Shown here piece by piece: positions 9,370 to 30,372 of a stretch of DNA of 32,000 bases; position 1 is the first letter of the stretch, and every line of letters begins with the position of its first letter. The stretch lies in contig NC_009033.1 of NCBI RefSeq assembly GCF_000015945.1, positions 690,001 to 722,000 of the forward strand. Reading direction: 5' to 3'. The notes beneath the pieces were generated by a model that was not told the origin of the DNA, made no database searches, and saw only the letters and a program-made list of their open reading frames with translations. The stretch comes from Staphylothermus marinus F1 (GTDB lineage Archaea; Thermoproteota; Thermoprotei_A; Sulfolobales; Desulfurococcaceae). The position numbers and the translations under genes are program-made.

Positions 9370-10722
9370 ATGTGTTCTAGGTACATATATGTAAAAGTAT
9401 ACAAAGCCGTAGAAGAGGGTTATGGTTTGAAAGCTATAACACGTATGGGTATGGCTATTTTAATAGTAGTTATAATTGCTATAGCATTAGCTGGAGTATA
9501 CTATTATACCACACAAACGGCTCCGCAAACTACCAAAACAACAACCACACAATCAACAACGCCTACTACAACTACAGCTACAACTACAACTACTCAACAA
9601 GCTAAAAAGATCAAGGTTGCAGTGGTATTTGATGTTGGTGGAAGAGGAGATCTAAGCTTTAATGATATGGCATATCTTGGAGCAGAGAGAGCTAAGCAGG
9701 AGCTCGGTGTTGATGTAGAATATTTAACTCCTAAATCACTAAATGATATGCAGCCACTCCTAGAACAACTAAGTAAGAGCCACGAATACGACGTTATAAT
9801 TCTCATAGGCTTCCTATGGACCGATCCATTAAATAAGACCGCCGACAAGTATCCTGATCAAAAATATGCATTAATAGATTCCACAACAGGTGTTGTGAGA
9901 AACAATGAGGTAGACATGCTTTTCCGCGAACAAGAATGTGCAAGCCTTATAGGAATACTAGCATCTGCGATGGCATATCAATTAAACGGATCAACAGTTG
10001 GTGCTGTTGCTGGAATGGATATTCCTCCATTATGGAAGTTCCATATAGGATACCTATTCGGAGTAAAATATTTTGAGATGAAGACGGGTAAGAAAGTAAA
10101 CTTTCTCTGGCAATACACAGGCACATTTACTGATCCACAAAAAGGATACCAGACCGCGATGCAGATGCTGCAACAAGGAGCAAAAGTCCTATATGGAGTA
10201 GCCGGTCTCACACATCTAGGAATGTTTGACGCAGTTATTGATTGGAACGAGAAAGGATATGGTAAAGCCTTTGCTATAGGACAAGATGCTAGCCAGGAAT
10301 GGTATAATCCAAACTATATACCATTAAGCGGTGCTAAAAGAGTAGATGTCGCAGTATATACTGTTATAAAAATGGTTGTTGATGGAACATGGAAAGGAGG
10401 AATACATACACTAGGACTTAAAGAGGGCGGTGTAGGAATCTGGGATCTGGACGGTGTTAAATATTTTGCTAAAATAGCATACAATGAGGGCAAGCTACCA
10501 AAGGGACTAACTCCTGATGACGTTGTTAGAATAGTTAACCAGACGAGACACAAGTACATACCCCAGTATGCATGGAATCTAGTCAATGACTTAGAACAGA
10601 AGATTAAGAATGGCGAAATAGTGTTTAAGACCCCGCAGACACATGAGGAATATGATCATATTATCCAAGAGCTCTTGCAAGGAAACTTAAATGCAGCACT
10701 GGAGAAGGGAAGTGTTAGCTAA
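9370..10722 (+). CDS. BMP-family (PnrA/Med-like) ABC transporter substrate-binding protein, membrane-anchored through an N-terminal TM helix and a Thr-rich linker
   Basis: 450-aa ORF, with a likely true start at ATG 9444 (MGMAILIVVIIAIALAG). The linker is TTKTTTTQSTTPTTTTATTTTTQQ. The core has VAVVFDVGGRGDLSFND, FGVKY and IGQD, typical of basic membrane protein family binding proteins. Confidence 0.85.
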   Translation: MCSRYIYVKVYKAVEEGYGLKAITRMGMAILIVVIIAIALAGVYYYTTQTAPQTTKTTTTQSTTPTTTTATTTTTQQAKKIKVAVVFDVGGRGDLSFNDMAYLGAERAKQELGVDVEYLTPKSLNDMQPLLEQLSKSHEYDVIILIGFLWTDPLNKTADKYPDQKYALIDSTTGVVRNNEVDMLFREQECASLIGILASAMAYQLNGSTVGAVAGMDIPPLWKFHIGYLFGVKYFEMKTGKKVNFLWQYTGTFTDPQKGYQTAMQMLQQGAKVLYGVAGLTHLGMFDAVIDWNEKGYGKAFAIGQDASQEWYNPNYIPLSGAKRVDVAVYTVIKMVVDGTWKGGIHTLGLKEGGVGIWDLDGVKYFAKIAYNEGKLPKGLTPDDVVRIVNQTRHKYIPQYAWNLVNDLEQKIKNGEIVFKTPQTHEEYDHIIQELLQGNLNAALEKGSVS

Positions 10723-10861
10723 GAAGTCTTCTCATCCAATTAAAATACTCAATAAAATATTTTTATTCTCACTTCATTAAATACTTATACCTTGTAATTT
10801 AAGTGATTACCCGGTTAAATTATTGTTTAAATTTCGATCTAAGGAGGTTTGATGCATAGAT

Positions 10862-12373
10862 ATGTCTGAAAAATATGCTGTGGAGATGGAGGATATTCAT
10901 AAAGTATATCCTGATGGAGTAGTTGCTTTAAAAGGAGTTGATTTTAGAGTTAAAAAAGGAGAAATACATGGTTTGCTCGGCGAAAATGGTGCCGGGAAAA
11001 CCACTCTTATGAGAATATTATATGGTGAAATAAAGCCTACTAGAGGAAAGATAAAGGTTTTCGGTGAAGAAGTAAGTTTCCATGGTCCATGGGATGCTAT
11101 AGCGAAAGGTATAGGAATGGTTTATCAACACTTTACACTTGTCCCCACATTTACTGTCGAAGAAAACCTGTATCTGAGCCTACTTAGTATAAATCCGAAA
11201 GCAACTATAAATGAAGCAATTGAAAAAGCTAAAAAAGCTATAGAAGCTACAGGTTTAAAGATACCGTTTAATGAAGTCATAGAAGATCTGCCTATAGGTG
11301 TTCAACAAAGAGTAGAAATAATAAAAGCATTGATTCGAGACGCTAAAATACTTATTCTCGACGAACCCACTAGTGTATTGACGCCTATAGAGGTACGCGA
11401 ATTATTCAAAGCATTGAAAAAGATGAAATCTATGGGCATAACAATTATTTTTATTACTCATAAACTCAAAGAAGTATTGGAGATTACTGATCGAATAACT
11501 GTTCTTAGAAGAGGAAAAGTTGTTGGAACAGTAGAAACAAGTAAGGTTGATGAAAAAACACTTGCTAGAATGATGGTTCAGAGAGAAGTAGTGTTTAAAA
11601 TTGAGAAGAAACCAGGCAAGTATGGTAGGGAGACTCTAGTAATCAACGATCTATATGTTAATGATGATAGAGGATTACCTGCTGTAAAAGGTGTTTCGTT
11701 AGCGATTAGAGAGGGAGAAATACTTGGGTTAGCCGGCGTTCAAGGTAATGGGCAGAGAGAACTTGCTGAAGCTGTTGCTGGTATAAGGCCTGTTGTTCGT
11801 GGAAAAATAGTTTTCGATGGGAAAGATGTCACGAATCTAGATGCATATAATAGATATAAGATCGGTATCGCATATGTTCCTGATTCTAGAAAAATTGGCC
11901 TTATAGGAGAAATGAGCATTGTTGAAAACGTTGTTCTCACAAATCTGTATAGAGTACTAAGTAGAAAGTTTAGAATGATAAGTTGGGGAAAGGCTTCAAG
12001 TATTGCAGATGAAGTGGTTAGGAAGCTTGAAGTAGTTGCGCCAAGTATTAATGCTCCGATTAAGTACTTGAGCGGCGGTAATCAACAGAAAGTAATGGTT
12101 GGCAGAGAGATTGTTCGTGAACCTAAGGTTTTCATTGTTGCAGAGCCTACGCAGGGATTAGATGTTGCAGCAACAGAGTTTATTAGGAAAACTCTTCTCT
12201 CGCTACGAGACCGTGGTAAAGCAGTTTTATTGATATCGACTGATCTAGATGAGATTCTTCAGTTAAGTGATCGGATAGCTGTTATATATGAAGGTAAAAT
12301 CATGGCTGTAGGTAAGCCTGAAGAGTTTACACTTGAGAGACTGGGCTTGTTAATGGGTGGTGTTCATGGCTAA
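10862..12373 (+). CDS. ABC transporter ATP-binding protein with duplicated ATPase domains (sugar/nucleoside uptake type)
   Basis: 503-aa ORF. Walker A is GENGAGKTT, the signatures are LPIGVQQRVEI and LSGGNQQKV, and Walker B is ILILDEPT/VFIVAEPT. An AGGAGG sequence lies upstream. Confidence 0.9.
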   Translation: MSEKYAVEMEDIHKVYPDGVVALKGVDFRVKKGEIHGLLGENGAGKTTLMRILYGEIKPTRGKIKVFGEEVSFHGPWDAIAKGIGMVYQHFTLVPTFTVEENLYLSLLSINPKATINEAIEKAKKAIEATGLKIPFNEVIEDLPIGVQQRVEIIKALIRDAKILILDEPTSVLTPIEVRELFKALKKMKSMGITIIFITHKLKEVLEITDRITVLRRGKVVGTVETSKVDEKTLARMMVQREVVFKIEKKPGKYGRETLVINDLYVNDDRGLPAVKGVSLAIREGEILGLAGVQGNGQRELAEAVAGIRPVVRGKIVFDGKDVTNLDAYNRYKIGIAYVPDSRKIGLIGEMSIVENVVLTNLYRVLSRKFRMISWGKASSIADEVVRKLEVVAPSINAPIKYLSGGNQQKVMVGREIVREPKVFIVAEPTQGLDVAATEFIRKTLLSLRDRGKAVLLISTDLDEILQLSDRIAVIYEGKIMAVGKPEEFTLERLGLLMGGVHG

Positions 12374-13403
12374 TCTACTAAGTCGTTTCATCGAGAAAAT
12401 ACGTATTAAATGGGCAGATTACATAATTGGAGCGTTGGAAATAATTTTATCGGCTCTAATAGGCTTCTTAGTCGCTGGATTAGTATTGTGGGGTCTAGGA
12501 TATGATCCTTCGAGAGCGTTCTCGATAATGATAAGTTATGGATACTCTGACCCAGTATATTTGATTGCTAAGGCAACACCTTTGATAATGACTGGTCTAG
12601 CATTTTCCATTCCATTATTAGCGGGTGTATTTAATATTGGTGGTGAAAGCCAACTATATCTTGGAGCATTAGCTGGTTTATTGACTGCATACTATACTGG
12701 TAACTGGTTCTTAGCTATTATAGCTGGGTTCATAGCTGGTGCTTTATGGGGCGGGTTAATAGCTGTGCTTAGAATATATAGGGGAATAAATGAGGTAATC
12801 ACAGCTATAATGCTTAACTGGATAGCATACTATACAATTATTTACCTAGTCATAAAGTATTTTGCAAATCCTGTACTGCCTCAACAAAGCGTCGAAGTTC
12901 CTCCCTCGGCACAGTTATCGCCGTGGATAGGGTTTTTACTTGGAATAATAGGTGTTGTGATAATTTATTATCTATTATACTATACTGATATAGGATATAA
13001 GATGAGAGTATCAGGTTTATCTCCTAGATCAGCTAAGTATGCTGGTTTCAACCCTATAACATCTATTCTATACTCAATGCTTATAGGAGGAGGAATGGCA
13101 GGGTATGGTGGAGCATTACTAGTATTAGCTGTTAGCCGCAGCATAGATGTAACAATGTCGACTCTATATGGATTAGGATTCACCGGTATCGGTGTTGGTT
13201 TGCTCGGCAGGAATCATCCAATAGGCATAGTGTTTTCTGCTCTATTCTTCGCCGGACTAATAATTGGTGGGCAATTCGTTGAATTAAAAACAGGTGCTCC
13301 ACCCATGTTATCTGATGCAATTACCGGTACAATTGTGATTGCCTTATCAGCTCCATACGCTTATAGGGTTCTCATAAGGTATTTTGGGGGGAGAGGAAAA
13401 TGA
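12357..13403 (+). CDS. ABC transporter permease (BMP-system, first permease)
   Basis: 348-aa polytopic membrane ORF that overlaps the ATPase stop and abuts the second permease, in typical operon order. Confidence 0.85.
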   Translation: MVFMANLLSRFIEKIRIKWADYIIGALEIILSALIGFLVAGLVLWGLGYDPSRAFSIMISYGYSDPVYLIAKATPLIMTGLAFSIPLLAGVFNIGGESQLYLGALAGLLTAYYTGNWFLAIIAGFIAGALWGGLIAVLRIYRGINEVITAIMLNWIAYYTIIYLVIKYFANPVLPQQSVEVPPSAQLSPWIGFLLGIIGVVIIYYLLYYTDIGYKMRVSGLSPRSAKYAGFNPITSILYSMLIGGGMAGYGGALLVLAVSRSIDVTMSTLYGLGFTGIGVGLLGRNHPIGIVFSALFFAGLIIGGQFVELKTGAPPMLSDAITGTIVIALSAPYAYRVLIRYFGGRGK

Positions 13404-14326
13404 TTGAGGACGTTATTAATCTTTTATCAGCTACATTATTCTCTATGACACCTATACTATTAGCTGCAACAGGAGAGATAATTACTGAGAAGGCTGGAGT
13501 TGTTAATATCGGGTTAGAAGGAATATTTATTGTATCAAGTTTCTCAGCAGCTGTTGCAACTCTAGTGTTAGGTAATAATCCATTGCTTGGATTATCGATT
13601 GGAGCATTTATTGGTTTATTAGCAGGGGTTCTCCACGGGATCATAAGTGTTTATCTGCGTGGTGACCAAATAATTGCTGGTGTTGGATTCAATAGTTTTG
13701 CTTATGGTATAAGTGTTCTTGGAATGATAGGGTTATGGGGAAGCTATTCTAGCAGTCCTACTGTGAATAAGATGCAAAACATACAGTTATCTATGGCTAA
13801 AAATACTGTATTAACAATTCCGCCTTTAGCGTTACTAGCTATACTCGTAGGTATTATTGCTTGGTGGTTTCTAGAGAAGACTAAGTGGGGATTAAGGCTT
13901 AGAGCATGTGGTGAGGAGCCTAGAGCAGCTGAAGCTATGGGTGTAAATGTTTTCAGGACAAGATTCTATGCTACAGTAATTGGCGGTACACTTACAGGTA
14001 TAGGTGGTGCATTCCTAGTTGTAGGATGGCTTGGATCATTTATTAAAACAATATCTGCTGGCAGAGGCTTTATAGCTTTAGCAATAGTTGCATTCTCTAA
14101 CTGGAACCCGTTAATGGCTATTCTAGGTGCTTTCATATTCGGGTTCTTCGATGCCTTATCAACGTATTTACCATTAAAAATACAAAGTATAACAGGACAA
14201 CAATTTACTGCTGAAGCAAACCTGTTCCTAACAATACCATATATTGCAACACTAGTTATAGTGGCAGCAATAATGAAGCGTGTCAAAATGCCTAGAGCAC
14301 TTGGAAAACCATATATTAAAGAATAG
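13400..14326 (+). CDS. ABC transporter permease (BMP-system, second permease)
   Basis: 308-aa polytopic membrane ORF. Its ATGA overlap with the preceding permease suggests translational coupling. Confidence 0.85.
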   Translation: MIEDVINLLSATLFSMTPILLAATGEIITEKAGVVNIGLEGIFIVSSFSAAVATLVLGNNPLLGLSIGAFIGLLAGVLHGIISVYLRGDQIIAGVGFNSFAYGISVLGMIGLWGSYSSSPTVNKMQNIQLSMAKNTVLTIPPLALLAILVGIIAWWFLEKTKWGLRLRACGEEPRAAEAMGVNVFRTRFYATVIGGTLTGIGGAFLVVGWLGSFIKTISAGRGFIALAIVAFSNWNPLMAILGAFIFGFFDALSTYLPLKIQSITGQQFTAEANLFLTIPYIATLVIVAAIMKRVKMPRALGKPYIKE

Positions 14327-15422: not shown

Positions 15423-16139
15423 ATGAAGCCTGCTCTTCTAAAAGATGTTGCAGGGGTTAGTGATCTAGTTATTGTAATGGGTGATCCTGATAGAGTATAC
15501 TTATTATCAACATTGCTGGAAAACCCCAAGATCATATATGATAGGAGAGGAATAGTTGTTGTTAATGGAGAATATAAGGGTAGAAAAATAACACTTGCCA
15601 GCCACGGTATTGGTTGTCCAATGGCATCAATTATATTGGAGGAACTGGGTATGCTTGGTGCTAAAACAATTATTAGAATAGGCACAGCTGGCTCACTTGT
15701 TGAAAACATTGGTTTAGGCGATATTGTGTTAGTAGCGGGGGCTGGGTACATGCTTAATGGGTGTGGAAACAATATGTATTCTCCCGAAATAAATGGAGGA
15801 ACAAGCCCAGATCCTCTACTGCTCAGCGAAATCTATCATTATTTATCACATTATAATATTAAGCCACATATTGGACTAGTATTTACAAGCGATGCATTCT
15901 ATGCGGAAGAAAATATAATTGATAAACTAACCAATAAAGGATTCATCGCTGTTGATATGGAGACAGCAATTCTATACATGCTTGGATGGATGAGGAAGTG
16001 GAGGACACTATCAATACTGGTAGTAAGCAACAGCCTCGTGAAGAAAACACCGTTGCTTACAACATATGAGCTCGCAGAGAAGTTTGTTGAACTAGCAAAA
16101 CTAGTATTAGAATATCTTGCAAGAAACACTCAGCACTAA
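15423..16139 (+). CDS. Nucleoside phosphorylase, PNP/UDP family 1 (uridine or purine nucleoside phosphorylase)
   Basis: 238-aa ORF with GDPDRV, SHGIGCPMASIILEEL, RIGTAGS and AVDMETA, the hallmarks of the DeoD/Udp family. Confidence 0.8.
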   Translation: MKPALLKDVAGVSDLVIVMGDPDRVYLLSTLLENPKIIYDRRGIVVVNGEYKGRKITLASHGIGCPMASIILEELGMLGAKTIIRIGTAGSLVENIGLGDIVLVAGAGYMLNGCGNNMYSPEINGGTSPDPLLLSEIYHYLSHYNIKPHIGLVFTSDAFYAEENIIDKLTNKGFIAVDMETAILYMLGWMRKWRTLSILVVSNSLVKKTPLLTTYELAEKFVELAKLVLEYLARNTQH

Positions 16140-19631: not shown

Positions 19632-20282
19632 TCAACATCTTCGATACAAGATTATTTTTGGATTATCTGAGATTACTGCATCAACACTTAGGTTCTCAAG
19701 TTTACATGCTGTAGCTGTGTCGTTAACTGTCCAAGCATAAACAATATAGTTATTACTATGCAGTGTATCTATAAGCCAATCCTCTATAAAAGCATAGTTT
19801 ATTGAGACTCCATCAGCGAGGGAATCACTTATTATATCAATAATGCTTATTGGTAAGGAATCAATGCTTACTAGTGCTTTATAATTTGTAGTTTCCTTCA
19901 CGTATCTAATGGCGAAATGGTCTTTGGAGGTGAAAATAATGCTGCGCGGAAGATTATTTAATTCTAAAATCCTAACTATGGTATTGATATCTTTTACGTC
20001 TAGAATCAGTTCTAAACCTCTCTTCCGTATAATTCCAAAAATATCTTCCAGCGATATGCTAAGTGATCTAATATATGGATCTCTATAGAAGAAACGGTAA
20101 TCAATCCAGCCCATAATCTTACCTAGCAAACTAGGCCTCACTATCGGGCTAGGACCATGCATAATCATTACTCTATTATTTTTAACTGAAACATCCACTT
20201 CTAAGCCATCAATATTCTTAAGTGTCAAATACTTTTTCAATACTAGCTTATTATTAGCTCTATGGCCGTAAATCTTCATCAA
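19632..20282 (-). CDS. Divergent glycerophosphodiester phosphodiesterase-like (GDPD fold) protein
   Basis: 216-aa ORF with IYGHRANNK, GLEVDV and YAWTVND, which align to GDPD motifs. The PEN(T/S) metal motif is absent and the FHD motif reads MHG. Confidence 0.55.
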   Translation of the reverse strand: MMKIYGHRANNKLVLKKYLTLKNIDGLEVDVSVKNNRVMIMHGPSPIVRPSLLGKIMGWIDYRFFYRDPYIRSLSISLEDIFGIIRKRGLELILDVKDINTIVRILELNNLPRSIIFTSKDHFAIRYVKETTNYKALVSIDSLPISIIDIISDSLADGVSINYAFIEDWLIDTLHSNNYIVYAWTVNDTATACKLENLSVDAVISDNPKIILYRRC

Positions 20283-20861: not shown

Positions 20862-21748
20862 ATGCGAAAACAAATAACTGTTACTGGGGGTAAGGGGGGA
20901 CAGGTAAGAGCTTTGTAGCAACTAATTTAGCAGTCTTATTATCAGATAGATACCCCACTGTACTAGCCGATCTCGATCTAGAGGCCCCAAATGATCATAT
21001 ACTACTTGGAGTAGAGAAACTAGAGAACGAAGAACCTATCAAGGCATTCCTACCCTTCATAGATACGAAGAAATGTACAAGATGCGGTGTATGCGCGAAA
21101 ATATGTGATACTGGAGCAATACTTATGCCACCAAATAGTCTCCCAGTAATATTTCCTAGATTATGTGGTGGATGCAAAGCATGCTACTATGCATGTCCCT
21201 ACAATGCTATATTGAAGGGATACCATGTACTAGGCTATAGCTATGTGACAAAAGTCACCATAGATAATCATAGTTTCATACTTGTCACCGGCATATTGAG
21301 GGAAGGAGAAGAACATACCCCGCCAGCAGTGGTTGCTACTAAGAATAGAGCTAAAAAGATTGATCATGAATTAATGATTGTAGATACTGGGGCGGGAACA
21401 GGTAACCAGATATCAATAGCGCTTCAAGGATCAGATCTAGTCATAGCTGTAACTGAAGCAACCCCGCTGGGACTACATGATCTCGAATCAATATTGAAGG
21501 TTACAAGCGATATGGACTTAGAAACAATAGTTGTAATCAACAGGTATGGTTTAGGCAGAATCGACAAACACGTGGAGACTATGAAGAAATATAGTGTGAG
21601 AACGTATTTTAAAATACCATACCATGTCGATGCTGTTGAATCATATATTAAAGGAAAACCAATTGTTATATACAAGCCTGACTCAATTGTTTCTAAGAGC
21701 ATTCATCAAATACATGAATACATTGTTAAGGAGTTGCTTGGGAAATGA
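20862..21748 (+). pseudogene. MinD/ParA-superfamily P-loop ATPase with an inserted 2x[4Fe-4S] ferredoxin domain (COG1149-like), frameshifted inside the Walker A codons
   Basis: From ATG 20862 the frame reads MRKQITVTGGKGGQVRAL and then a stop. The +2 frame opens at 20894 as GGTGKSFVATNLAVLLSDRYPTVLADLDLEAPNDH...CTRCGVCAKICDTGAI and runs into the 207-aa ORF (CGGCKACYYACPYNAI, DTGAGTG). One extra G in the G6 run at 20894-20899 would restore GKGGTGKS. Confidence 0.75.
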
Positions 21749-22734
21749 GTAGTGGAGGACTCGAAATAGTTGTGGCAAGTGGTAAGGGAGGAGTTGGAAA
21801 ATCAACAATAACATCTTCATTAGCACTAGTCTTAGCTGAGAAAAAACTTGATTTCATAGCCGTAGACGCTGATGCTGAAGCTCCAAACCTAAACATTGTT
21901 CTAGGAATAACTAATTGGGACGAGATAGAACCATATTATGAAGGCAGATACGCTGAGATCGTACAGGAGAAATGCATTAATTGTGGAGAATGTATGAATG
22001 CATGTCCATTTAACGCTGTTGAGCTTATCAATAATAAATATGTTATTAACAAATGGATATGTGAAGGCTGCTATACATGCAGCTTTGTATGCCCTACAAA
22101 AGCTATAAGAATAATCAGGGATATTGTAGCTGGCTATGTTAGAATAAAATATAGAACACCCTACGGATTCCCCCTCGTATCAGGCGAACTAGTGCCTGGT
22201 AGGCCTAACTCGGGTAAACTAGTGACCGAGGTAAAGAATAGAGCAAGGAAGATTGGTGGAAAAGATGCTATTCTACTAGTAGATGCTGCTGCAGGTATTG
22301 GTTGCCAAGTAATATCTAGTCTTGCCGGAGCACATATGGCGATCCTTGTAGCAGAGCCTACACCAGCTAGTCTAAGCGATCTCAAGAGAATACATAAATT
22401 AACAAAACACTTCATGATACCCTCCGCACTAATAATTAACAAATACGATATGAATCCAGAGTATTACGGGATCATTAAGGATTATGCTTTAAAAGAAAAC
22501 ATTGATTACCTAGGAGAAATACCCTTCGATGATCACATTGCTGAATCAATTGCAAACATGGAGCCACTACTAATAAAATATCCTGATTCACCAGCTGCAA
22601 CAGCTATAAGAAAGATAAGTTTGAAAATTATAGATATACTTGAGAACTATAGGGAATGGAGAATAAAGCATCTACCTCCAAAAATGGAGCCATTCATACC
22701 CATAGTTATAAAACCTAGAGAAACACATACATAG
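21745..22734 (+). CDS. MinD/ParA-superfamily P-loop ATPase with an inserted 2x[4Fe-4S] ferredoxin domain (COG1149-like), intact paralog
   Basis: 329-aa ORF. Walker A is ASGKGGVGKST and the ferredoxin motifs are CINCGECMNACP and CEGCYTCSFVCP. It also has DAAAGIG. Its ATGA overlap with the upstream paralog suggests translational coupling. Confidence 0.85.
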   Translation: MSSGGLEIVVASGKGGVGKSTITSSLALVLAEKKLDFIAVDADAEAPNLNIVLGITNWDEIEPYYEGRYAEIVQEKCINCGECMNACPFNAVELINNKYVINKWICEGCYTCSFVCPTKAIRIIRDIVAGYVRIKYRTPYGFPLVSGELVPGRPNSGKLVTEVKNRARKIGGKDAILLVDAAAGIGCQVISSLAGAHMAILVAEPTPASLSDLKRIHKLTKHFMIPSALIINKYDMNPEYYGIIKDYALKENIDYLGEIPFDDHIAESIANMEPLLIKYPDSPAATAIRKISLKIIDILENYREWRIKHLPPKMEPFIPIVIKPRETHT

Positions 22735-22742
22735 ATGAAAAG

Positions 22743-23081
22743 GTGGTCAACATGGTTAGAATAGCGTTTCCAACAGATAAGGGTGGATTAGATGATTACA
22801 TATATGATAGGTTCGGTAGAGCACCAACATTTACAATTATAGAAGTAGAAGATGGTGAAATTAAGAATGTTAAAATAATTGAAAACCTAGGACATCGAGC
22901 AGTTAGTGGTGCGGGAATAAAAGCTGTTCAGAAACTTATTGAGGAAAAAATAGATGTTGTTGCAGGACCCAATCCAGGCCCCAATGCATATATGGCTTTA
23001 CAACAAGCAAATATCAAGGTTATATCAATGCTTGGATTAAAAGTTAAGGATGCTATCGAACACGTGATTAAACAACTTTAA
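22743..23081 (+). CDS. NifX/NifB-C-terminal-like (dinitrogenase FeMo-cofactor-binding fold, COG1433) small protein
   Basis: 112-aa ORF, with a probable start at ATG 22752. RIAFPTDKGGLDDYIYDRFGRAPTFTIIEV...GAGIKAVQKLIEEKIDVVA matches the NifX/NafY-like domain pattern (hFG.a..f.i.d). Confidence 0.75.
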   Translation: MVNMVRIAFPTDKGGLDDYIYDRFGRAPTFTIIEVEDGEIKNVKIIENLGHRAVSGAGIKAVQKLIEEKIDVVAGPNPGPNAYMALQQANIKVISMLGLKVKDAIEHVIKQL

Positions 23082-23204: not shown

Positions 23205-24587
23205 TTGCCTGAATCATCCAAGATCAAAATAAGTATTATAGGTGCTGGTTCTGCTGTATGGTCTATTCCTGTATTAATAGATATAATGTTGAAGAAGAGC
23301 TTAGCTAATGCAGATGTGTATCTCATGGATATTGATCTTGACCGGTTAAAGCTTGTATATGGATTTGCTAAGAGATATGCTGAAGAAATACATTCAACAG
23401 TAAAATTTCACATGACCACTGATAGAGTAGAAGCGATTAGGGATGCTGATTTCGTAATAAATAGTGCTATGGCTATGGGTCATTCATACTATGAGAGAAT
23501 GAGGGAGATCAGTGAGAAACACGGATACTATAGGGGAATAAATAGTGTTGAATGGAACATGGTGAGCGATTATCATACTATTTGGGGATACTACCAGTTC
23601 AAACTCGCTATGAGTATTGCAAGGAATATAGAGGAGTATGCTCCAGACGCGTGGCTGTTAAATGTTGCTAATCCAGTATTTGAATTAACAACTCTAATTA
23701 GTAGAAAGACAAAAGTGAAAATGATCGGTTTATGTCATGGACATATGGGGTTCGAGAATGTTATACGAGAACTAAAACTTCCCAAAGATAAAGTAGAAGC
23801 TGAAATAATCGGTTTCAACCATGTGATTTGGCTAACAAAATTCAAAGTAGACGGTGAAGACGGCTATAAGTTCTTGGATAAATGGATAGTGACAGAAGCT
23901 GATAAGTACTGGAAGAAATGGAGAGAAACAACAGCTAACCCCTTCGACATAGACTTATCCCCCGCAGCCATAGACATGTATAAAAACTACGGCTTACTCC
24001 CAATAGGAGATACTGTTAGAGGAGGAACATGGAAATACCACTGGAACCTAGAAACAAAGAAGAAATGGTATGGACCATATGGAGGGCCGGATTCAGAAAT
24101 AGGTTGGGCAATGTATGTTGCTTTTCTGAAAATGAGACTATACGAAATCTACAAAGCTATAACCGATACATCAAGGCCTCTAACACTATTATTCCCGCCT
24201 AAACCCAGTGGTGAACAAGTTATTGAACTAATTGATTCCATGGTGACAGGTACACCTAGAACTTTTCAAGTCAATATATTAAATAATGGATCAATACCTG
24301 GTATACCAGATAATGTAGCTGTTGAAATGCCAGCTGTAATTGATGATAAAGGTGTTCATAGAAAAACATTCCCTCCATTACCATCGAAGATACAGAAATA
24401 TGTCATATATCCCAGAATGATGAGAATGGAATGGGCTCTCGAAGCCTTCCTAGAAGGTGGTAGAGATAAATTATTTGAGTGGCTAATCTATGATCCAAGA
24501 ACAAAATCTACTAGACAAGTAGAGGAAACAATAGATGATCTATTAAAAATGCCTGGAAACGAAGAAATGGCTAAACACTATTCATAA
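23205..24587 (+). CDS. Glycoside hydrolase family 4 (NAD+/Mn2+-dependent alpha-glucosidase/galactosidase-like)
   Basis: 460-aa ORF with a TTG start. It has the Rossmann motif KISIIGAGSAVWS, DADFVIN, LNVANPVFELT, GLCHG and GFNH, all typical of GH4. Confidence 0.85.
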   Translation: MPESSKIKISIIGAGSAVWSIPVLIDIMLKKSLANADVYLMDIDLDRLKLVYGFAKRYAEEIHSTVKFHMTTDRVEAIRDADFVINSAMAMGHSYYERMREISEKHGYYRGINSVEWNMVSDYHTIWGYYQFKLAMSIARNIEEYAPDAWLLNVANPVFELTTLISRKTKVKMIGLCHGHMGFENVIRELKLPKDKVEAEIIGFNHVIWLTKFKVDGEDGYKFLDKWIVTEADKYWKKWRETTANPFDIDLSPAAIDMYKNYGLLPIGDTVRGGTWKYHWNLETKKKWYGPYGGPDSEIGWAMYVAFLKMRLYEIYKAITDTSRPLTLLFPPKPSGEQVIELIDSMVTGTPRTFQVNILNNGSIPGIPDNVAVEMPAVIDDKGVHRKTFPPLPSKIQKYVIYPRMMRMEWALEAFLEGGRDKLFEWLIYDPRTKSTRQVEETIDDLLKMPGNEEMAKHYS

Positions 24588-24603
24588 AACATTAGGTGAT
24601 TTT

Positions 24604-25548
24604 TTGGGGCTGGAAATCTATACATTAGATGAGATAAGTTTAAGCAATAAAGAAGTATTGGAGATTCTAAACAAGATATTCGTTTATGACCATATAGATA
24701 TAGAGCTTTATAGGAGAACTATAGAATTAGATCCTAATCATTCAAATAATGAATTCTTCTTCTTCACTGAAAACAATGAAGTTATCGGAGTAGCTTACCT
24801 AGTATATTTAAAAGAAAAAACCAAATCTATCCTAGGCGGATTAAACAAGTATACTGATCATATATGGTTAAAATTGTTAGGTGTTGTTCCAGGAAAGGAA
24901 GAACTCCTAGAAAATATAATAGATTACATCGAAGATTATGCTGGAAGAAACAATAAAAAAATAATACACATATATGGGTATGCACCATTCTACTTTGCTC
25001 CAGGAATAGATCGTAGATACGAGATAATAAATAGGAAACTATTTGAGAAAGGCTATGAGTTGGAGAGCAAGGTTGTAAACTATTATGTTGACATGGATGA
25101 ATACTATGTTCCATTAGAAGCATTATGGCTACAAGAAAGAATTAGTAGGGAAGGATATGTTGTTAGGGAAACAGGGATTGATGAATATGATAGAGTGACT
25201 ACATGGATAAAAGAAAAATTCGGGATTATCTGGGGACTAGAATCGTTAATCACTAAAAACTATGAGTGCTCAGGGATCATTATAGTTGAGAATAAAGAGG
25301 AGGAAATAATAGGTTTTAATACTTATGGGGCATCTGCGCCTTACAGATATGGTCCTGTGGGTGTTTGGGAAAAGTATAGGGGTAGAGGGTTTGGAAAAAT
25401 ACTTCTCCACTATACACTAAATAAGATGAAGAAGCTTGGACTGCGCATAGTTGAGATTCCATGGACTACTCATTTATTCTACTATGCAGGAGTGCCTGGA
25501 CTATATAGGATTAGGTTGTTTAATATATATGTTAAAAAAATTAATTAA
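24604..25548 (+). CDS. GNAT-family N-acetyltransferase domain protein
   Basis: 314-aa ORF with a TTG start. The C-terminal half has the acetyl-CoA motif VGVWEKYRGRGFGKILLHYTLNKMKKLG (R-x-x-G-x-G). The N-terminal half is possibly a second degenerate GNAT-like domain. Confidence 0.7.
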   Translation: MGLEIYTLDEISLSNKEVLEILNKIFVYDHIDIELYRRTIELDPNHSNNEFFFFTENNEVIGVAYLVYLKEKTKSILGGLNKYTDHIWLKLLGVVPGKEELLENIIDYIEDYAGRNNKKIIHIYGYAPFYFAPGIDRRYEIINRKLFEKGYELESKVVNYYVDMDEYYVPLEALWLQERISREGYVVRETGIDEYDRVTTWIKEKFGIIWGLESLITKNYECSGIIIVENKEEEIIGFNTYGASAPYRYGPVGVWEKYRGRGFGKILLHYTLNKMKKLGLRIVEIPWTTHLFYYAGVPGLYRIRLFNIYVKKIN

Positions 25549-26735
25549 ATCCAAATTCTTCTTTTTTCAATTACTTCGCCGAAGAAAAACTTCATTTCTT
25601 CATCATTCATCAATGGATCATAATCTCCCGCAGTTTGTATTCTCGGCTCTACCCTTATTCTCTGCCCTTCTAATAATGCAGTTATTGCTTGGAGCTTGGA
25701 AATTATCCATGAGGTTTCCTCTAATAATTTCTTATTATTTATATTATTTATTTCATTTAGCATCTTCTTTAAGCGGGCAACATCGTTTTTACTTGGTACA
25801 TAGTCTCCTAATGGGTTGAAAGGTGACGCCTTATTTAATTCTATAAATAAACGCATTGTTTCATAGTATTCTTCTGGGTATAGGTGTTTGATTGCATTAG
25901 TAATTGATTCTTCAGGATCATAGTTTTGTTTTCTCCTATACATTTCAGCTAATGTATATAATGGGATTTTGGAGGCTTCAGCTTCTATCATTGGGTTAGC
26001 AACGTATCCTGATACATAGTTCCATATTTCTGGTTCTCTATTAGTGAAGGGGCCTAAGTGTAGTCTTGCAATACCTTTTAATAAGAAATAATCATTTACT
26101 GGGTAATTGTCCCAAATAAATGGTTTCCTCCCAGTGATCTCATGGAATCTCTTAACATCTTCTAATCTTATTTTTCTAGATACTATTGCTGGACCGGTCC
26201 ACATTATATATACGTTGTTCTCAAGCAGTGATCTGAGTTCTCTAAGATAGTCTTCTCTGAACCCCCAATAATATGTGGGGCAGAAAAACATGTTTTTAGG
26301 AGATAATTCATGGATAACATAGTTTACTAGATCAGCTTGTGCTTCGCCCAGTGTTTTATAGCCTTTGCCTCTAAGAACTGGAGGAATATCATCTAGGAAA
26401 ATAGCTATGTTGGTGAAACCTATCTCCATTAATCCCTCGAGTTTTAATATGATTTGTCTACGATCGTTTTTGTCCGAGTAATTAATTGTAAGACCTGGTG
26501 ATAATGCATATACTATTTCAACCCCCTTCCTATTACCAGCATCAATTAACTCCGTGAACATGTCTGTGTAGCTTCTAGGATAAGGTGTTCTCCAACGAGA
26601 TCGATGATAAGGATCCCATTTTGGACCATAAATATATATGTTCAATCCTATTTGTTGCATAAACTCGATCATTAATAACCTATCTATTTTATCCCATAAT
26701 GGACCATAGAAGCCTTCAACTACTCCAACATACAT
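25545..26735 (-). CDS. Glycoside hydrolase family 84 beta-N-acetylglucosaminidase (O-GlcNAcase/NagJ-like catalytic domain)
   Basis: 396-aa ORF with GVVEGFYGPLW, IYIYGPKWDPYHR, YALSPGL, the catalytic Asp pair in IAIFLDDI, FCPTYY, MWTGPAIVS, FIWDNYPVNDY and ANPMIEAE. These are collinear with the conserved blocks of human OGA and bacterial GH84 enzymes. Confidence 0.85.
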   Translation of the reverse strand: MYVGVVEGFYGPLWDKIDRLLMIEFMQQIGLNIYIYGPKWDPYHRSRWRTPYPRSYTDMFTELIDAGNRKGVEIVYALSPGLTINYSDKNDRRQIILKLEGLMEIGFTNIAIFLDDIPPVLRGKGYKTLGEAQADLVNYVIHELSPKNMFFCPTYYWGFREDYLRELRSLLENNVYIMWTGPAIVSRKIRLEDVKRFHEITGRKPFIWDNYPVNDYFLLKGIARLHLGPFTNREPEIWNYVSGYVANPMIEAEASKIPLYTLAEMYRRKQNYDPEESITNAIKHLYPEEYYETMRLFIELNKASPFNPLGDYVPSKNDVARLKKMLNEINNINNKKLLEETSWIISKLQAITALLEGQRIRVEPRIQTAGDYDPLMNDEEMKFFFGEVIEKRRIWI

Positions 26736-26743
26736 GTTATCGC

Positions 26744-27562
26744 CTAAATATACTCGGTAAAGGGTACAGCATGTAATAGTATTGTCGGAACAAGCTTGAC
26801 TGCGTCAGCGTATTCAACATTTATTTTTCTCCCATAGATTGCTCCTAATATACGTATGAGGGCTTCAATAAGCATCCATGATTCTTTAAATTGTGATTCA
26901 TGTTTCCTTAATGCTTCCAGTTTTTTCTCAATAACATCTGTTATATCTATATACATGTTTGGTCTCGAAGTATAATAGTAGGCTATATATCTTATGCTAT
27001 GTGGAGATAAACCCGTCTCTAAGTCTACACGATTATATAGGGGCATCCCCGAGAATATTGCGGCTGTTGATGCTGCTCTCCCAGTATTTAAATGATCAGG
27101 ATGGGCTTCATAGGGTAGAGAAGGATCAGGAGCTAACACTATATCTGGTTTGAGAAGCCTATATAGTGTTACAAGCTTGTTTATTACCTCATAACTATAT
27201 GGTAGTTCTCCATCAGGATAATTTAGCCAATAAATATTCTTAACGCCTAAGACCTTAGCAGCTTCTTCCTGCTCTCTTTTCCTAATTAATGCTACCCTAC
27301 CCCTCGTCATTCTTGGATCACGTGTTCCTCTGGAACCATCAGTCATTACTACTAAGTATACATCCTTGCCTTTTCCAGCATATTTAGCGATTAACCCACC
27401 CACTCCTACTTCGCAATCATCTGGATGTGGTGAAATACATAGTATTTTACGAGCATTATCGAATGCTTGATCAAAGTCCTTTGCAATATATTGCTTCACA
27501 ATAGTCCTGTATACTTCTTGTTCCGGTAATTGCTTTATTAGCTGGAGAATTTCAGACATCAC
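26744..27562 (-). CDS. PIG-L/LmbE-family N-acetylglucosaminyl deacetylase
   Basis: 272-aa ORF with the zinc-binding signatures ISPHPDDCEVGVGG and HPDH typical of the PIG-L family. The family includes the diacetylchitobiose deacetylases of Thermococcales. Confidence 0.85.
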   Translation of the reverse strand: MMSEILQLIKQLPEQEVYRTIVKQYIAKDFDQAFDNARKILCISPHPDDCEVGVGGLIAKYAGKGKDVYLVVMTDGSRGTRDPRMTRGRVALIRKREQEEAAKVLGVKNIYWLNYPDGELPYSYEVINKLVTLYRLLKPDIVLAPDPSLPYEAHPDHLNTGRAASTAAIFSGMPLYNRVDLETGLSPHSIRYIAYYYTSRPNMYIDITDVIEKKLEALRKHESQFKESWMLIEALIRILGAIYGRKINVEYADAVKLVPTILLHAVPFTEYI

Positions 27563-27587
27563 ATTAATTCACCTATACACTATACAA

Positions 27588-28877
27588 TTATTTTTCTATG
27601 GGGTACTTAGTAAATATTAGTGCTGCAGGTATTAGTAGTAGTGCTCCAACAACATATACGAGGCGAATGCCTAGATCATTGCCTGGAGCATAACCGAATA
27701 CTCCTAGTAGAAACGATACTGTTACACCAGCTATTCCAGCCATTGTCTTAGTTATTAGTCCTTGTGTTCCAAAATAAATTGCTTCTCTACGATAACCAGT
27801 TATTTGTTCATCAACATCGGTTATGTCAGCGATGATTGCGTTTGGAAGCATTAGTAGTGGAGTAACAAATGCTCCTGCTATAACGCCTGTTATTAGCAAG
27901 TATATTTGGGGATCAATTGGTACATAGCCTATGAAGGCAATCATTAGTGTTGGTATGAGAAATAATAGCATACCTAACAAGTATACTTTCTTCTTACCAA
28001 TTGTTGATGCTAAATGTTTGTATATTGGTAGTGTTATTATTGAAACAATTATGAGTGGTAGATAGAATAGTGAAACATGTTCTTTTTCTAACCCAGCTGA
28101 AACAGTTACGGCATATGATAATGCCGTTTGCAACATTGTTGTTGAGAGTACTAGTAGTGCTGTTGGTACGAGGTATAGGAGAAATGTTTTATTAGTAGCT
28201 GTTATTTTTACTGCTTCCCACAAATTCATCTTAGTAGCTATTTTTTCAACAGACCTTATTCTCTCCTTAACACCTAGAACAATTGAAAACATAGCTGTTA
28301 TTCCTATCAGTGTAAGAACAATTGCAGTATTGAGGAAACCAAGTATTCCTAGGAGGATAGGTACTATTACACCACTAATAATTAGTGATACTTGGCTGAA
28401 GAATGCTTGGAAAGTTGATAATTTCACTCTATCCTCCTTAGTAGTAGCTATTTCAGGTAATAATGCGAGATATGGCGCAATAGCCGCTGTAAAGCCAAAC
28501 CAGAACACGCCGAGAAGTATAGCTGCATATAATACGTTTATTATAGATACCCCGTGAACAATCGGTATCCATATAAGGATCTGGCTAAGAGCCATCAATA
28601 TGAAGCCCATAACAATAAAGGGTTTACGCCTCCCCCACTTTGAAATTGTTTTATCGCTCCAATAGCCAATCAATGGATCAGAGACTGCATCTACAATTCT
28701 ACCAAACAATATAACGGCGCCCATAGCAATGATCGGTGCTAAAGGCATTAATCCACTATTCTCTGGAGGAGAATAATAGTATAGTAACCACTGAACAATA
28801 AGTGCCGAACCAACACCCATAAGATTACCATAACCATAAAGCAGAGCTTTAAGAGAAGAAATCCTCTCCTCAGACAA
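27588..28877 (-). CDS. Glycoside-pentoside-hexuronide (GPH):cation symporter family transporter (MelB-like MFS)
   Basis: 429-aa polytopic ORF with the GPH loop motif DPLIGYWSDKTISKWGRRKPFIV (D-x-x-G-x-x-S-D-x-t-x-x-x-G-R-R-x-P). Confidence 0.8.
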   Translation of the reverse strand: MSEERISSLKALLYGYGNLMGVGSALIVQWLLYYYSPPENSGLMPLAPIIAMGAVILFGRIVDAVSDPLIGYWSDKTISKWGRRKPFIVMGFILMALSQILIWIPIVHGVSIINVLYAAILLGVFWFGFTAAIAPYLALLPEIATTKEDRVKLSTFQAFFSQVSLIISGVIVPILLGILGFLNTAIVLTLIGITAMFSIVLGVKERIRSVEKIATKMNLWEAVKITATNKTFLLYLVPTALLVLSTTMLQTALSYAVTVSAGLEKEHVSLFYLPLIIVSIITLPIYKHLASTIGKKKVYLLGMLLFLIPTLMIAFIGYVPIDPQIYLLITGVIAGAFVTPLLMLPNAIIADITDVDEQITGYRREAIYFGTQGLITKTMAGIAGVTVSFLLGVFGYAPGNDLGIRLVYVVGALLLIPAALIFTKYPIEK

Positions 28878-29034
28878 CTAAACCCCCCAACAGTCCCACA
28901 AAAGTTAAATAAATATAAAAAATAAAATTAAAATATTGCCATAAAACCCCACAGCCTCACCAAGTATTCTCCGCAAGAATTCAACGTAAAAATATAATAT
29001 CCTGGGAAAAATAGAACATAAAAGACATAAAGTT

Positions 29035-29112
29035 GGGCCCGTGGTCTAGCCTGGTTAGGACGCCGCCCTCACACGGCGGAGGTCCGGGGTTCAAATCCCC
29101 GCGGGCCCACCA
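29035..29112 (+). tRNA. tRNA-Val(CAC): tRNA-Val (anticodon CAC), intron-less, with encoded 3' CCA
   Basis: Manual cloverleaf: acceptor GGGCCCG/CGGGCCC, D arm GTCT-AGCCTGGTTA-GGAC, anticodon stem CCGCC/GGCGG with loop CT-CAC-AC, variable loop AGGTC, T arm CGGGG-TTCAAAT-CCCCG, discriminator A, then CCA. Confidence 0.92.
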
Positions 29113-29388: not shown

Positions 29389-30372
29389 CTAATACGTTCC
29401 TGGTTGTATTTGTATTACTAGTTCTACTGCTCCATTGTCTTCTATTACTATTGTTAGTAGTCCCATGAACATTGCGGGTGCGCCGTTTATGGTTGTATTA
29501 TAGTATCCTGCAATGTGTATTTCACCGCCTGATGATACTAGTGTGGTTGTTACCCATCCATTATTTGCTAATGTTGTGTTTAATTCTTGTAAATAGTTAG
29601 ATGCTTCCTGCGGATTATAGTTTTGTATATGGAATGATGCCGCATATTGTTGGTTAACTACTCCCTGGAAATAGCATTGTAGATTTGATTCTCCGAAAAC
29701 TGTGGCTGCTGCTTGATACATAGACTGATACGCTGCTTGATACTGTGTGGGCGGATTAGGTATGCATCCGGGGGCTTGTGTGGTTGTCGTAGTACCTGTT
29801 ACACTTTGAGTGGTTGTTGTAGTTGTTGTAGTTGTTTCTGATGGTATCTGTGTCGAGGAAGATACTTTTCTACCGCTCCACTGTCCATTATCCATATTAT
29901 TTGTGAAATGCCATGTTCCAGATGCTTGTGTACCATCACCTGATACTGTACCGCTAAATACTACGGCTGCCATACCGCCATAGTTTCCTACAGTACCAAC
30001 AGTTATTTGGTTACCATCAACTGTTACCTCGATATTTATCCATCCACCGGTAGGGTATACATCTGATGTTTTTAAAACACCAGCATACTTGTTAGAGCTT
30101 ACTCGGTGAATAATCCATGTCCAATGACCAGTACTACTCGGACCCTGCCATGCATGAGCAGTAAATGTGCCTTCCCATGTACCAGATAGGTCCGCGCCAG
30201 AGTATCCACTGGTTGTAGTAGTTGTCTGTGTTGATTGTTTTGTTGTAGTTGTTGTTTCACTTAGTGTACTAGTTGTGCCAATGTTTATTGAGGAGGCGTT
30301 ATAGTATATTATAGCTGCTCCAACGCCCACTAGGAGAGCAACTACTACTCCTACAATTAATAATGTATTCAA
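29389..30372 (-). CDS. Membrane-anchored or secreted protein of unknown function with two Thr-rich linkers
   Basis: 327-aa ORF with a TTG start, preceded by GGAGG 7 nt upstream. It has an N-terminal TM/signal helix LLIVGVVVALLVGVGAAII and the linkers TTTTTKQSTQTTTTT and TTTTTTTTTQSVTGTTTTT. The central roughly 120-aa domain has a repeated SGTW motif. I recognise no family. Confidence 0.6.
   Translation of the reverse strand: MNTLLIVGVVVALLVGVGAAIIYYNASSINIGTTSTLSETTTTTKQSTQTTTTTSGYSGADLSGTWEGTFTAHAWQGPSSTGHWTWIIHRVSSNKYAGVLKTSDVYPTGGWINIEVTVDGNQITVGTVGNYGGMAAVVFSGTVSGDGTQASGTWHFTNNMDNGQWSGRKVSSSTQIPSETTTTTTTTTQSVTGTTTTTQAPGCIPNPPTQYQAAYQSMYQAAATVFGESNLQCYFQGVVNQQYAASFHIQNYNPQEASNYLQELNTTLANNGWVTTTLVSSGGEIHIAGYYNTTINGAPAMFMGLLTIVIEDNGAVELVIQIQPGTY

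Follow-up and report, generated by a model that had tools for sequence, protein, structure and literature searches.

What would an archaeon do with a locus that encodes a β-N-acetylglucosaminidase of family GH84 together with both a deacetylase and an acetyltransferase for amino sugars? The question is raised by five genes at positions 23205-28877 of a 32,000-nucleotide stretch of the Staphylothermus marinus F1 chromosome (NC_009033.1, positions 690,001 to 722,000 of the forward strand; this whole stretch is hereafter the window), which encode a GPH-family symporter, a PIG-L protein of the diacetylchitobiose deacetylase (Dac) type, a GH84 enzyme, a tandem-GNAT acetyltransferase and a GH4 glycosidase. 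We give an even chance to the reading that this locus is a cytoplasmic salvage or catabolic module for small imported β-linked glycosides of N-acetylglucosamine (GlcNAc) or glucosamine (GlcN). Its likeliest substrates would be chitobiose and partly de-N-acetylated chito-oligomers, and other GlcNAc-containing glycan fragments are possible.

The listing of open reading frames (ORFs) places five intact genes in two convergent units, with the coordinates and strands given in the initial annotation. The minus-strand unit begins with the symporter (27588-28877, 429 amino acids (aa), MelB-like, MFS_2), followed by the PIG-L/CE14 deacetylase (26744-27562, 272 aa) and the GH84 β-N-acetylglucosaminidase (25545-26735, 396 aa). 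The plus-strand unit consists of the AglA-like, NAD+/Mn2+-dependent GH4 glycosidase (23205-24587, 460 aa) and the acetyltransferase of the GlmA family (24604-25548, 314 aa). The genes are separated by 16 nucleotides (nt) between GH4 and GNAT, 8 nt between GH84 and PIG-L and 25 nt between PIG-L and GPH, and the stop codons of GNAT and GH84 converge with a 4-nt overlap. These short gaps fit two operons. The families that had been assigned to the five proteins were borne out by Pfam matches, which lay far over the curated cut-offs for four of them and narrowly over for the GNAT; the best NCBIfam models for GH4, GH84, PIG-L and the transporter were all below their curated cut-offs. The initial annotation had also reported no chitinase, carbohydrate-binding module or signal peptide. 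Neither of the first two was found among the window ORFs of at least 100 aa, and the four soluble proteins have no hydrophobic N-terminal signal, the hydrophobic stretch at residues 7-26 of GH4 being its Rossmann GAGS motif. As no secretion signal and no chitinase were found in the window, the view that the enzymes work in the cytoplasm on a small imported substrate is supported.

The GH84 protein matched Pfam NAGidase (PF07555) with 320 bits (cut-off 25) over 294 of the 295 model positions, and the GlcNAcase equivalog was its best NCBIfam model, under cut-off. It was matched by 38 GH84 sequences in the PDB (E 8.5e-66 to 1.5e-24), the best solved relative being TtOGA of Thermobaculum terrenum (5diy, E 8.5e-66, 40% identity), and it has a single-domain architecture with a catalytic barrel and a C-terminal region of ~100 aa. 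D115-D116, in the motif IFLDDIP, align with the DN of the 5diy entry, which we take to be the D120N mutant of TtOGA, at the TtOGA catalytic pair. The catalytic DD pair that had been noticed in FLDDI is therefore kept, and together with K39, Y156 and N210-D215 (NYPVND) it is invariant in 24 archaeal homologues. The protein carries the full catalytic apparatus, and hydrolase activity is predicted. In the GH84 family, the 2-acetamido group of the substrate is the nucleophile (substrate-assisted catalysis), and GlcN glycosides are not cleaved. The family includes bacterial hydrolases of mucin and O-GlcNAc as well as eukaryotic O-GlcNAcase (OGA); to our knowledge no archaeal member has been characterised to date, and our literature searches on GH84 in archaea found none. 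The window protein belongs to an archaeal clade of ~400-aa proteins (~50 cluster representatives), monophyletic in a neighbour-joining tree, which come from metagenome-assembled genomes (MAGs) of Desulfurococcales, Staphylothermus, Sulfolobales, Zestosphaera and Thermoprotei. Members of this clade are 41-66% identical to the window GH84, compared with at most ~43% for bacterial proteins. That the nearest relatives are MAGs of Desulfurococcales, Staphylothermus, Sulfolobales and Thermoprotei agrees with the earlier description of the locus as archaeal.

The PIG-L protein is a CE14 deacetylase of the Dac type, close to the Dac of Thermococcales, with its activity predicted from this kinship. Its Pfam PIG-L match has 115 bits, and residues 15-272 matched 3wl4 (1e-80), 8bgo, entitled 'Diacetylchitobiose deacetylase' (2e-79), and 3we7 (PH0499; 2e-75) in the PDB, so that its nearest solved relatives are the diacetylchitobiose deacetylases of Pyrococcus and Thermococcus. 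It is 46% identical to 3wl4 (Pf-Dac), and both zinc-binding motifs, HPDD (residue 46) and HPDH (residue 154), are kept. The Dacs of archaea are classified in CE14 (PMC6415152). The NCBIfam ranking, in which no equivalog model was reached and BshB1 came best with 127 bits (cut-off 182.5), raised a bacillithiol or mycothiol deacetylase as a candidate; it was rejected on the comparison of Dac (1e-80) with BshB (6p2t, 3e-23) and MshB (6e-7).

Membership of the acetyltransferase in the glucosamine/glucosaminide N-acetyltransferase (GlmA) family is secure. The Pfam match (Acetyltransf_1, 33 bits) covers residues 198-285 only. A word-indexed homologue search returned only 5 proteins; with an exhaustive HMMER search at E ≤ 1e-10 the family grew to 399 cluster representatives, almost all ~310 aa long. 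A 7-sequence profile singled out 5kf1 (E 5e-10) and 4zm6. Profile A4, built from 53 sequences of the family found with HMMER, matched GlmA 5kf1 over its full length (9.6e-44), with positions 10-307 of the profile aligned to 7-315 of the chain. RmNag 4zm6 followed at 9e-26, well ahead of any further GNAT (2e-10). The AlphaFold (AF2) model of the protein (pLDDT 81) has two α/β halves, and its top Foldseek matches were 4zm6 and 5kf1/5kgh (TM ~0.7), with other tandem GNATs close behind. An assignment as MshD, as an Eis-like enzyme or as the pseudo-HAT of OGA was rejected, GlmA and RmNag being far ahead in the profile and fold searches. The entry 5kf1 is GlmA, the tandem-GNAT glucosamine N-acetyltransferase of C. 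acetobutylicum (PMC10936415), and 4zm6 is RmNag, a fungal GH3 β-N-acetylglucosaminidase fused to a glucosamine N-acetyltransferase region; the RmNag acetyltransferase is needed for cleavage of (GlcN)2, but not of (GlcNAc)2, by the β-N-acetylglucosaminidase (PMC4680927).

The GPH protein matched Pfam MFS_2 with 183 bits (cut-off 27) and has about 12 hydrophobic segments in a crude Kyte-Doolittle scan in which some ranges overlap; the NCBIfam models gph (TIGR00792, 142 bits, cut-off 231) and MelB (106 bits) both stayed under cut-off. Import by symport rather than by an ABC system had been proposed for the locus, and the window indeed holds this predicted symporter and yielded no sugar ABC transporter. 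GPH orthologues adjoin the Dac region in three related loci (L003, 83%; L083, 75%; L092, 54%; locus numbers are our own labels). A conserved element, ACGTTGAATTCTTGCGGAGAA (28967-28987, minus strand), with the inverted repeat ATTCT-N5-AGAAT, precedes the GPH start by ~90-110 nt. Its pattern, ACGTTG-N(0-4)-TTCT-N(3-5)-AGAA, has one match in the window against 0 expected in 100 shuffles, the pattern having been derived from the same sequences, and among 94 loci it occurs elsewhere only 5' of GPH in L081 (87-107), L082 (106-126) and L083 (3230-3246). It may be an operator or a promoter footprint, and we offer it as a lead only. A 10-mer screen allowing one mismatch found no operator motif common to both window promoters and the orthologous promoters.

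Do these genes belong together? The window proteins were mapped onto 97 loci, mostly MAG contigs with short flanks. In a tblastn comparison of the five proteins with 80 genome loci, all five were found only in L003, and further look-ups added L083. Two loci (L081 and L082) have a GH84 98% identical to that of the window and the same gene arrangement. In L003 and L083 (GH84 59-60%) the order is GPH> Dac> <GNAT GH84> <GH4, with a TnpB gene between GPH and Dac in L083. Dac, GH84, GNAT and GH4 are spread over ~20 kb in L084/L090 (one contig; GH84 59%), where no GPH was found. L091 and L092 (GH84 ~50%) have GNAT> <GH84 <Dac without GH4, L092 with an MFS gene and GPH in addition. L004/L094 (GH84 50%) holds GH84, a SIS-domain gene and GNAT without Dac, and in L001/L002 (GH84 66%) and L086 (51-52%) GH84 stands alone within the available flanks. 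All GNAT loci with usable flanks (the window with L081/L082, L003, L083, L084, L004/L094, L091 and L092) have GH84 within 4.1 kb; the GNAT family had also been searched alone in metagenomes. Dac lies within 2.1 kb of GH84 in the window, L003, L083, L084, L091 and L092, and GPH is part of the set in the window, L003, L083 and L092. In every arrangement, GPH, Dac and GH84 are on one strand and GNAT and GH4 on the opposite one; in L004/L094, GNAT and the SIS-domain gene are opposite GH84. The set has been kept through at least three gene orders or rearrangements and one TnpB insertion. With the same five genes grouped in three further species-level lineages under a different gene order, and subsets of them in others, the clustering is beyond chance. 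Its core unit is Dac, GH84 and the GlmA-like GNAT, found in about five Thermoprotei lineages, to which GPH is a frequent and GH4 a subclade-specific addition. The proposal that all five genes are co-conserved thus did not hold: the triad recurs with or without GPH, and GH4 is adjacent only in the window's subclade. The TnpB-like gene of L083 (4867-6096, Cas12f1-like_TNB) has a counterpart at the edge of L084, and because of these insertions mobile elements are seen to be reshaping the region.

The place of GH4 is a separate matter. The protein matched Pfam Glyco_hydro_4 (PF02056, 161 bits) and 4C (PF11975, 147 bits), and it keeps the NAD+ motif GAGS (residue 13) as well as CHG (residue 177) and NH (residue 205). 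With Thermotoga maritima AglA it shares 52% identity (1obb, E 2e-133), compared with only ~1e-23 for the 6-phospho-β-glucosidase branch, and it scored 549 bits against NCBIfam AglA (NF041089), whose equivalog cut-off of 650 it does not reach. It can therefore be placed in the AglA subfamily, but the same substrate specificity is not assured. No archaeal GH4 α-glucosidase had been characterised as of a 2023 review (PMC9855744). GH4 adjoins the locus only in the window lineage, L003 and L083. Orthologues with 62-71% identity stand elsewhere without any locus partner in five of five neighbourhoods (Thermosphaera chiliense, Zestosphaera, Ignisphaera, Methanomethylicia and one more), and the idea that GH4 is generally tied to amino-sugar genes in archaea was rejected on this count. 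Three readings of GH4 can be given. It may follow Dac as a glucosaminidase, it may be an α-glucos(amin)idase directed at α-linked residues, or it may be an ordinary AglA-type α-glucosidase that only happens to be adjacent. For its chemistry, subfamily membership and the free-standing orthologues favour an ordinary AglA-type α-glucosidase. For its role, GH4 is an add-on of this subclade and most likely cleaves a bond beyond the reach of GH84, which could be an α-glucoside or, once deacetylated, a GlcN-glycoside. The interleaved operons and the conserved strand partner GNAT argue that GH4 works in the pathway, a participation to which we give somewhat less than an even chance. Some archaeal AglA-like GH4 proteins (from Ignisphaera, Thermofilum and Desulfurococcaceae; P0137, P0140, P0145, P0234 and others) have 501-509 aa, and their excess of ~45 residues over the 460 aa of the window protein implies a subfamily-specific insertion.

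How would the salvage module work? Judging from its family, GPH would take up glycosides coupled to cations. GH84 would remove terminal β-GlcNAc but not GlcN ends, and the GNAT, by homology and by comparison with RmNag, would use acetyl-CoA to N-acetylate GlcN ends or free GlcN and so supply GH84 with substrates. Dac would convert released GlcNAc, and possibly the disaccharide, into GlcN and acetate, and GlcN would then pass through GlcN-6-P to fructose-6-P by an archaeal route that is presumably encoded outside the window. All of these steps are deduced from homology and gene context. The constant pairing of GNAT with GH84 would be best explained by acetylation of GlcN ends followed by cleavage, and the acetyltransferase probably accompanies GH84 because GH84 needs the acetyl group. 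The initial annotation had cast GH84 in the hexosaminidase role of the chitin route, but it does not simply take the place of GH35: the GH35 enzyme GlmA cleaves deacetylated GlcN-GlcNAc, whereas GH84 needs the acetyl group, so that the order of steps must differ from that of the Thermococcales route. The suggestion of an acetylation-state editing step gained support from the family of the GNAT and from the Dac type of the PIG-L protein. In contrast, the joint presence of a deacetylase and an acetyltransferase is less unusual than had been thought, as RmNag (acetylate, then cleave; PMC4680927) and ChbG/ChbF (deacetylate, then GH4; PMC12791066) provide precedents. Dac and GNAT are always in opposite transcription units, and their opposite strands may allow separate control and limit futile cycling. 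Because L004/L094 holds GNAT and GH84 without Dac, the GlcN-containing substrates seem to be environmental (partly deacetylated chitin or peptidoglycan) rather than made by Dac.

Several points weigh against this salvage pathway. Dac and GNAT could run a futile cycle that hydrolyses acetyl-CoA, and their separate regulation is read from strand polarity only. By homology, Dac should prefer the non-reducing GlcNAc of chitobiose and yield GlcN-GlcNAc, which GH84 would not cleave; therefore, the order of steps may be different. The substrates of all five proteins are predictions from sequence. No sugar kinase, deaminase or NagA was found in the window annotation, which thus offers no downstream kinase or deaminase for GlcN. 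N-acetylation of GlcN by the GNAT is itself uncertain. Two residues were probed by mutant structures of GlmA, according to the PDB titles. The equivalent of Tyr297 is Y294, kept in 52 of the 53 family members, but the position of Asp287 is P286 in the window protein and never Asp in the family; an invariant E284 is found two residues upstream in the window's subfamily. Because Asp287 is not conserved in register, family membership does not make the chemistry securely identical to that of GlmA. In addition, L001/L002, the closest locus by GH84 identity (66%), has no partners in its flank, which extends only 1.4 kb upstream, and the lineages compared are related, so that the counts are not independent events.

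Other explanations of the same genes have to be set against the salvage pathway. The locus might hold two unrelated modules brought together by inherited history, a melAB-like pair of GPH and GH4 for an α-glucoside or α-galactoside and an amino-sugar set of Dac, GH84 and GNAT. GH4 with a GPH symporter is the melA/melB layout of Escherichia coli, and the best NCBIfam models are AglA or α-galactosidase for GH4 and MelB for GPH. Between the window and L003, moreover, GPH (83%) and GH4 (78%) are far more conserved than Dac (67%), GH84 (59%) and GNAT (44%), and the GH4 orthologues elsewhere are unlinked to amino-sugar genes. However, the short gaps between GPH and Dac, Dac and GH84, and GH4 and GNAT make GPH look co-transcribed with Dac and GH84 and leave the supposed modules interleaved; L092 pairs GPH with Dac and GH84 in a locus without GH4, and GPH and GH4 were never adjacent in any arrangement seen. 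We regard this explanation as doubtful. The order of steps could instead follow the preference of Dac, with deacetylation and then cleavage of GlcN-GlcNAc by GH4 (in place of the GH35 GlmA or of ChbF) as the main route, and with GH84 and GNAT acting in parallel as part of a toolkit for any acetylation pattern. We know of no AglA-type enzyme that cleaves β-glucosaminides, and the window GH4 is of this non-phosphorylated α-glucosidase type (1obb, 52%, 2e-133) and remote (~1e-23) from the 6-phospho-β-glucosidase subfamily, which presumably includes ChbF. In favour of this route, GH4 lies beside the locus in two gene orders, always on the GNAT strand, the PIG-L protein is nearest to the Thermococcales Dac, and the GH4 enzyme ChbF of E. 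coli cleaves glucosamine-6P-glycosides only after ChbG has taken one acetyl group (PMC9402603, PMC12791066). As the GH4 orthologues at 62-71% stand alone in all five sampled genomes, and GH4 does not adjoin the Dac, GH84 and GNAT genes retained in L084, L091 and L092, we consider a Dac-then-GH4 main route unlikely.

The α-specific AglA type of the GH4 could also be taken at face value, in which case Dac would produce an α-GlcN glycoside for an α-glucosaminidase, and GH84 and GNAT would act on β-linked residues of the same glycan. The CE14 relatives BshB and MshB, which are the next-best PIG-L matches, act on α-GlcNAc glycosides, and an apparent α-N-acetylglucosaminidase of Sulfolobus solfataricus was reportedly resolved by Iacono et al. 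in 2019 into a PIG-L de-N-acetylase and a glycosidase. Nevertheless, the PIG-L protein matches the deacetylases of β-linked chitobiose (1e-80) much better than it matches BshB (3e-23), half of the triad-bearing lineages are without GH4, and we know of no α-glucosaminidase activity documented for an AglA-type GH4; an α-GlcNAc route is accordingly very unlikely. Least of all do the genes suggest protein modification, in which GH84 would be a regulatory O-GlcNAcase of intracellular proteins, as proposed for TtOGA, and the GNAT would be the counterpart of the acetyltransferase-like domain in eukaryotic OGA. The best PDB match of GH84 is indeed the intracellular OGA of T. terrenum (PMC4683255), GH84 has no signal peptide, and a GNAT gene is always near, eukaryotic OGA having a GNAT-like C-terminal domain (PMC4680927). 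Yet no OGT of family GT41 was seen in the 32-kb window or in annotated neighbours, GH84 appears to share its operon with genes for a sugar symporter and a sugar deacetylase, and its relatives occur in catabolic clusters with NagA, AnmK and NamZ. The GNAT, for its part, matched glucosamine N-acetyltransferases (1e-43), and no OGA chain was among its best 60 profile matches (E to ~6e-4) or its best 50 fold matches. We judge a regulatory O-GlcNAcase to be extremely improbable.

The catabolic clusters just mentioned were found in other MAGs of Desulfurococcales and Sulfolobales (L035:7523-16864, L014, L009:268-5442, L006, L010, L013, L015, L017 and L011/L012), where a more distant GH84 is part of a cluster resembling those with which bacteria recycle N-acetylmuramic acid (MurNAc), anhydro-MurNAc and GlcNAc. 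AnmK (NF007148, 430 bits, cut-off 387), NagA (321 bits, cut-off 226) and a GlmS-type protein (516 bits, cut-off 418) were identified there with NCBIfam, beside a SIS protein, a PBP4B-like protein of β-lactamase fold, NamZ, M14 and M20 peptidases and an EIIC-type (EIIC-GAT) permease. Because archaea make no murein, these clusters look like systems for scavenging bacterial cell-wall fragments, with GH84 in the role of NagZ. No paper on archaeal clusters of AnmK, NamZ, NagA and GH84 was found in our literature searches, and they may be more surprising than the five-gene locus. Their gene content supports a catabolic, scavenging role for the whole archaeal GH84 clade and, if the clusters are confirmed, it would mean that hyperthermophilic archaea scavenge bacterial peptidoglycan.

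A broader version of the salvage module can be imagined, in which N-acetyl editing runs both ways, so that β-linked disaccharides of amino sugars would be degradable whatever their acetylation pattern. Their sources could be chitin, chitosan or de-N-acetylated peptidoglycan. GH84 would then take the GlcNAc ends, the AglA-type GH4 would have been recruited as a non-phosphorylated glucosaminidase for the GlcN ends, and Dac and GNAT, separately controlled, would interconvert the two. Taken as a whole this is rather unlikely. If it were true, it would imply, together with the GH84 genes linked to AnmK, NamZ and NagA, that hyperthermophilic archaea use GH84 as a general NagZ-like enzyme to feed on cell-wall debris left by other organisms.

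The rest of the window is unrelated to the locus and encodes a nucleoside-type ABC transporter, PNP, pyridoxal phosphate (PLP) enzymes, an M20 peptidase, GDPD proteins and MinD/Fer4 proteins. Directly upstream of GH4 (21125-23081, plus strand) is a pair of paralogous P-loop proteins of the MinD/ParA type, of 207 and 329 aa and 31% mutual identity, that contain 4Fe-4S ferredoxin domains. They are followed by a 112-aa Nitro_FeMo-Co (NifB/NifX-like) protein, and synteny of this group with the locus extends to L081 and L082 but not to remoter relatives. The two GDPD genes (4571-5290 and 19632-20282, both on the minus strand, the second with a partial domain match), the Bmp-type nucleoside ABC transporter (9370-14326) and the PNP/UDP phosphorylase (15423-16139) suggest a scavenging-rich region. 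On the other side, a tRNA-Val (CAC) gene (29035-29112, plus strand) inside the 511-nt gap between GPH and a Thr-rich ORF marks the boundary of the locus. The Thr-rich surface proteins that the initial annotation had connected with the locus are represented by this ORF (29389-30372, minus strand, 327 aa), which has an N-terminal transmembrane segment and Thr-rich stretches. The ORF is present as described, but the link is not supported, since the tRNA gene lies between and the neighbour is absent in relatives. Adjoining GH4, L083 (10727-13327) and L090 (11968-14556) encode proteins of 862-866 aa with a signal or transmembrane segment, a β-rich ectodomain, a poly-Thr stalk and a C-terminal transmembrane anchor. 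These had no Pfam or PDB similarity, and the window Thr-rich ORF had no tblastn match in L083 or L090. An extracellular glycanase was considered for the 862-866-aa neighbour and dropped, no lead to one having emerged from a Thr-rich membrane-anchored surface protein.

How, then, does the locus compare with known systems? In the Thermococcales chitin pathway, ChiA, Dac and the GH35 exo-β-D-glucosaminidase GlmA act before a GlcN kinase and GlmD. The window shares with it a hyperthermophilic archaeal host and a cytoplasmic Dac-type CE14 enzyme, 46% identical to Pf-Dac, for turning an imported GlcNAc disaccharide into GlcN. However, as a GH84 its glycosidase depends on the very acetyl group taken off by Dac, and the window has an acetyltransferase, which is absent in Thermococcales. 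Of a Thermococcales-type cluster only Dac was found; no GH18, GH19, GH35, sugar ABC transporter or GlmD was detected in the window or related loci. With the GlmA of C. acetobutylicum and with RmNag the locus has in common the tandem-GNAT family and its genetic coupling to an exo-β-GlcNAcase, but here the partner is GH84 rather than GH3, the genes are separate and on opposite strands rather than fused, Asp287 is not conserved, the host is archaeal and a deacetylase is added. Similarly, the chb operon of E. coli encodes a deacetylase and a GH4 glycosidase with a disaccharide transporter, and its GH4 cleaves glucosaminides only after de-N-acetylation (PMC9402603, PMC12791066). In contrast to the window proteins, ChbG belongs to the YdjC family and not to CE14, and ChbF acts on 6-phosphorylated substrates delivered by the phosphotransferase system (PTS); the window GH4 is of the AglA subfamily and is combined with predicted symport without phosphorylation, and chb has neither GH84 nor GNAT.

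The GH84 enzyme itself resembles the O-GlcNAcases TtOGA (5diy), OgOGA (2xsa), CpNagJ, BtGH84 and human OGA in its catalytic domain, DD pair and sugar-binding residues, and, like TtOGA and OgOGA, it is predicted to be intracellular and has a single catalytic domain. It differs from the known members in belonging to an archaeal clade of its own, whose identity to bacterial proteins does not exceed ~43%, and in its catabolic rather than signalling gene context. As in E. coli melAB, which encodes a GH4 α-galactosidase and a GPH melibiose symporter, GH4 and GPH occur in one locus, and the GH4 (52% identical to T. maritima AglA) keeps the NAD-binding and Cys-His motifs; unlike in melAB, the two genes are never adjacent and lie in opposite units, each co-directional with an amino-sugar enzyme. 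Full-text literature searches turned up no account of GH84 combined with Dac, nor of a part for GH84 in the amino-sugar catabolism of archaea, and searches on Dac in Crenarchaeota and on AnmK in archaea found no description of the locus. The locus matches none of the Thermococcales chitin cluster, the chb operon and the melAB operon, nor, going by the window and the annotated neighbours, the O-GlcNAc cycling pair; all of its components are of known families, and their combination is undescribed. An archaeal GH84 clade with a catabolic context would give the family its first archaeal function, and chito-oligosaccharides of defined acetylation pattern could be made with the thermostable enzymes of the locus (Dac, GlcN N-acetyltransferase and GH84). 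Set beside the known systems, the locus suggests a rule by which an acetyltransferase accompanies an enzyme dependent on the acetamido group (GH84), and a deacetylase accompanies one dependent on the free amine (GH35, or the GH4 enzyme ChbF). It would also represent a second archaeal route for GlcNAc disaccharides, distinct from the Dac/GH35 route of Thermococcales.

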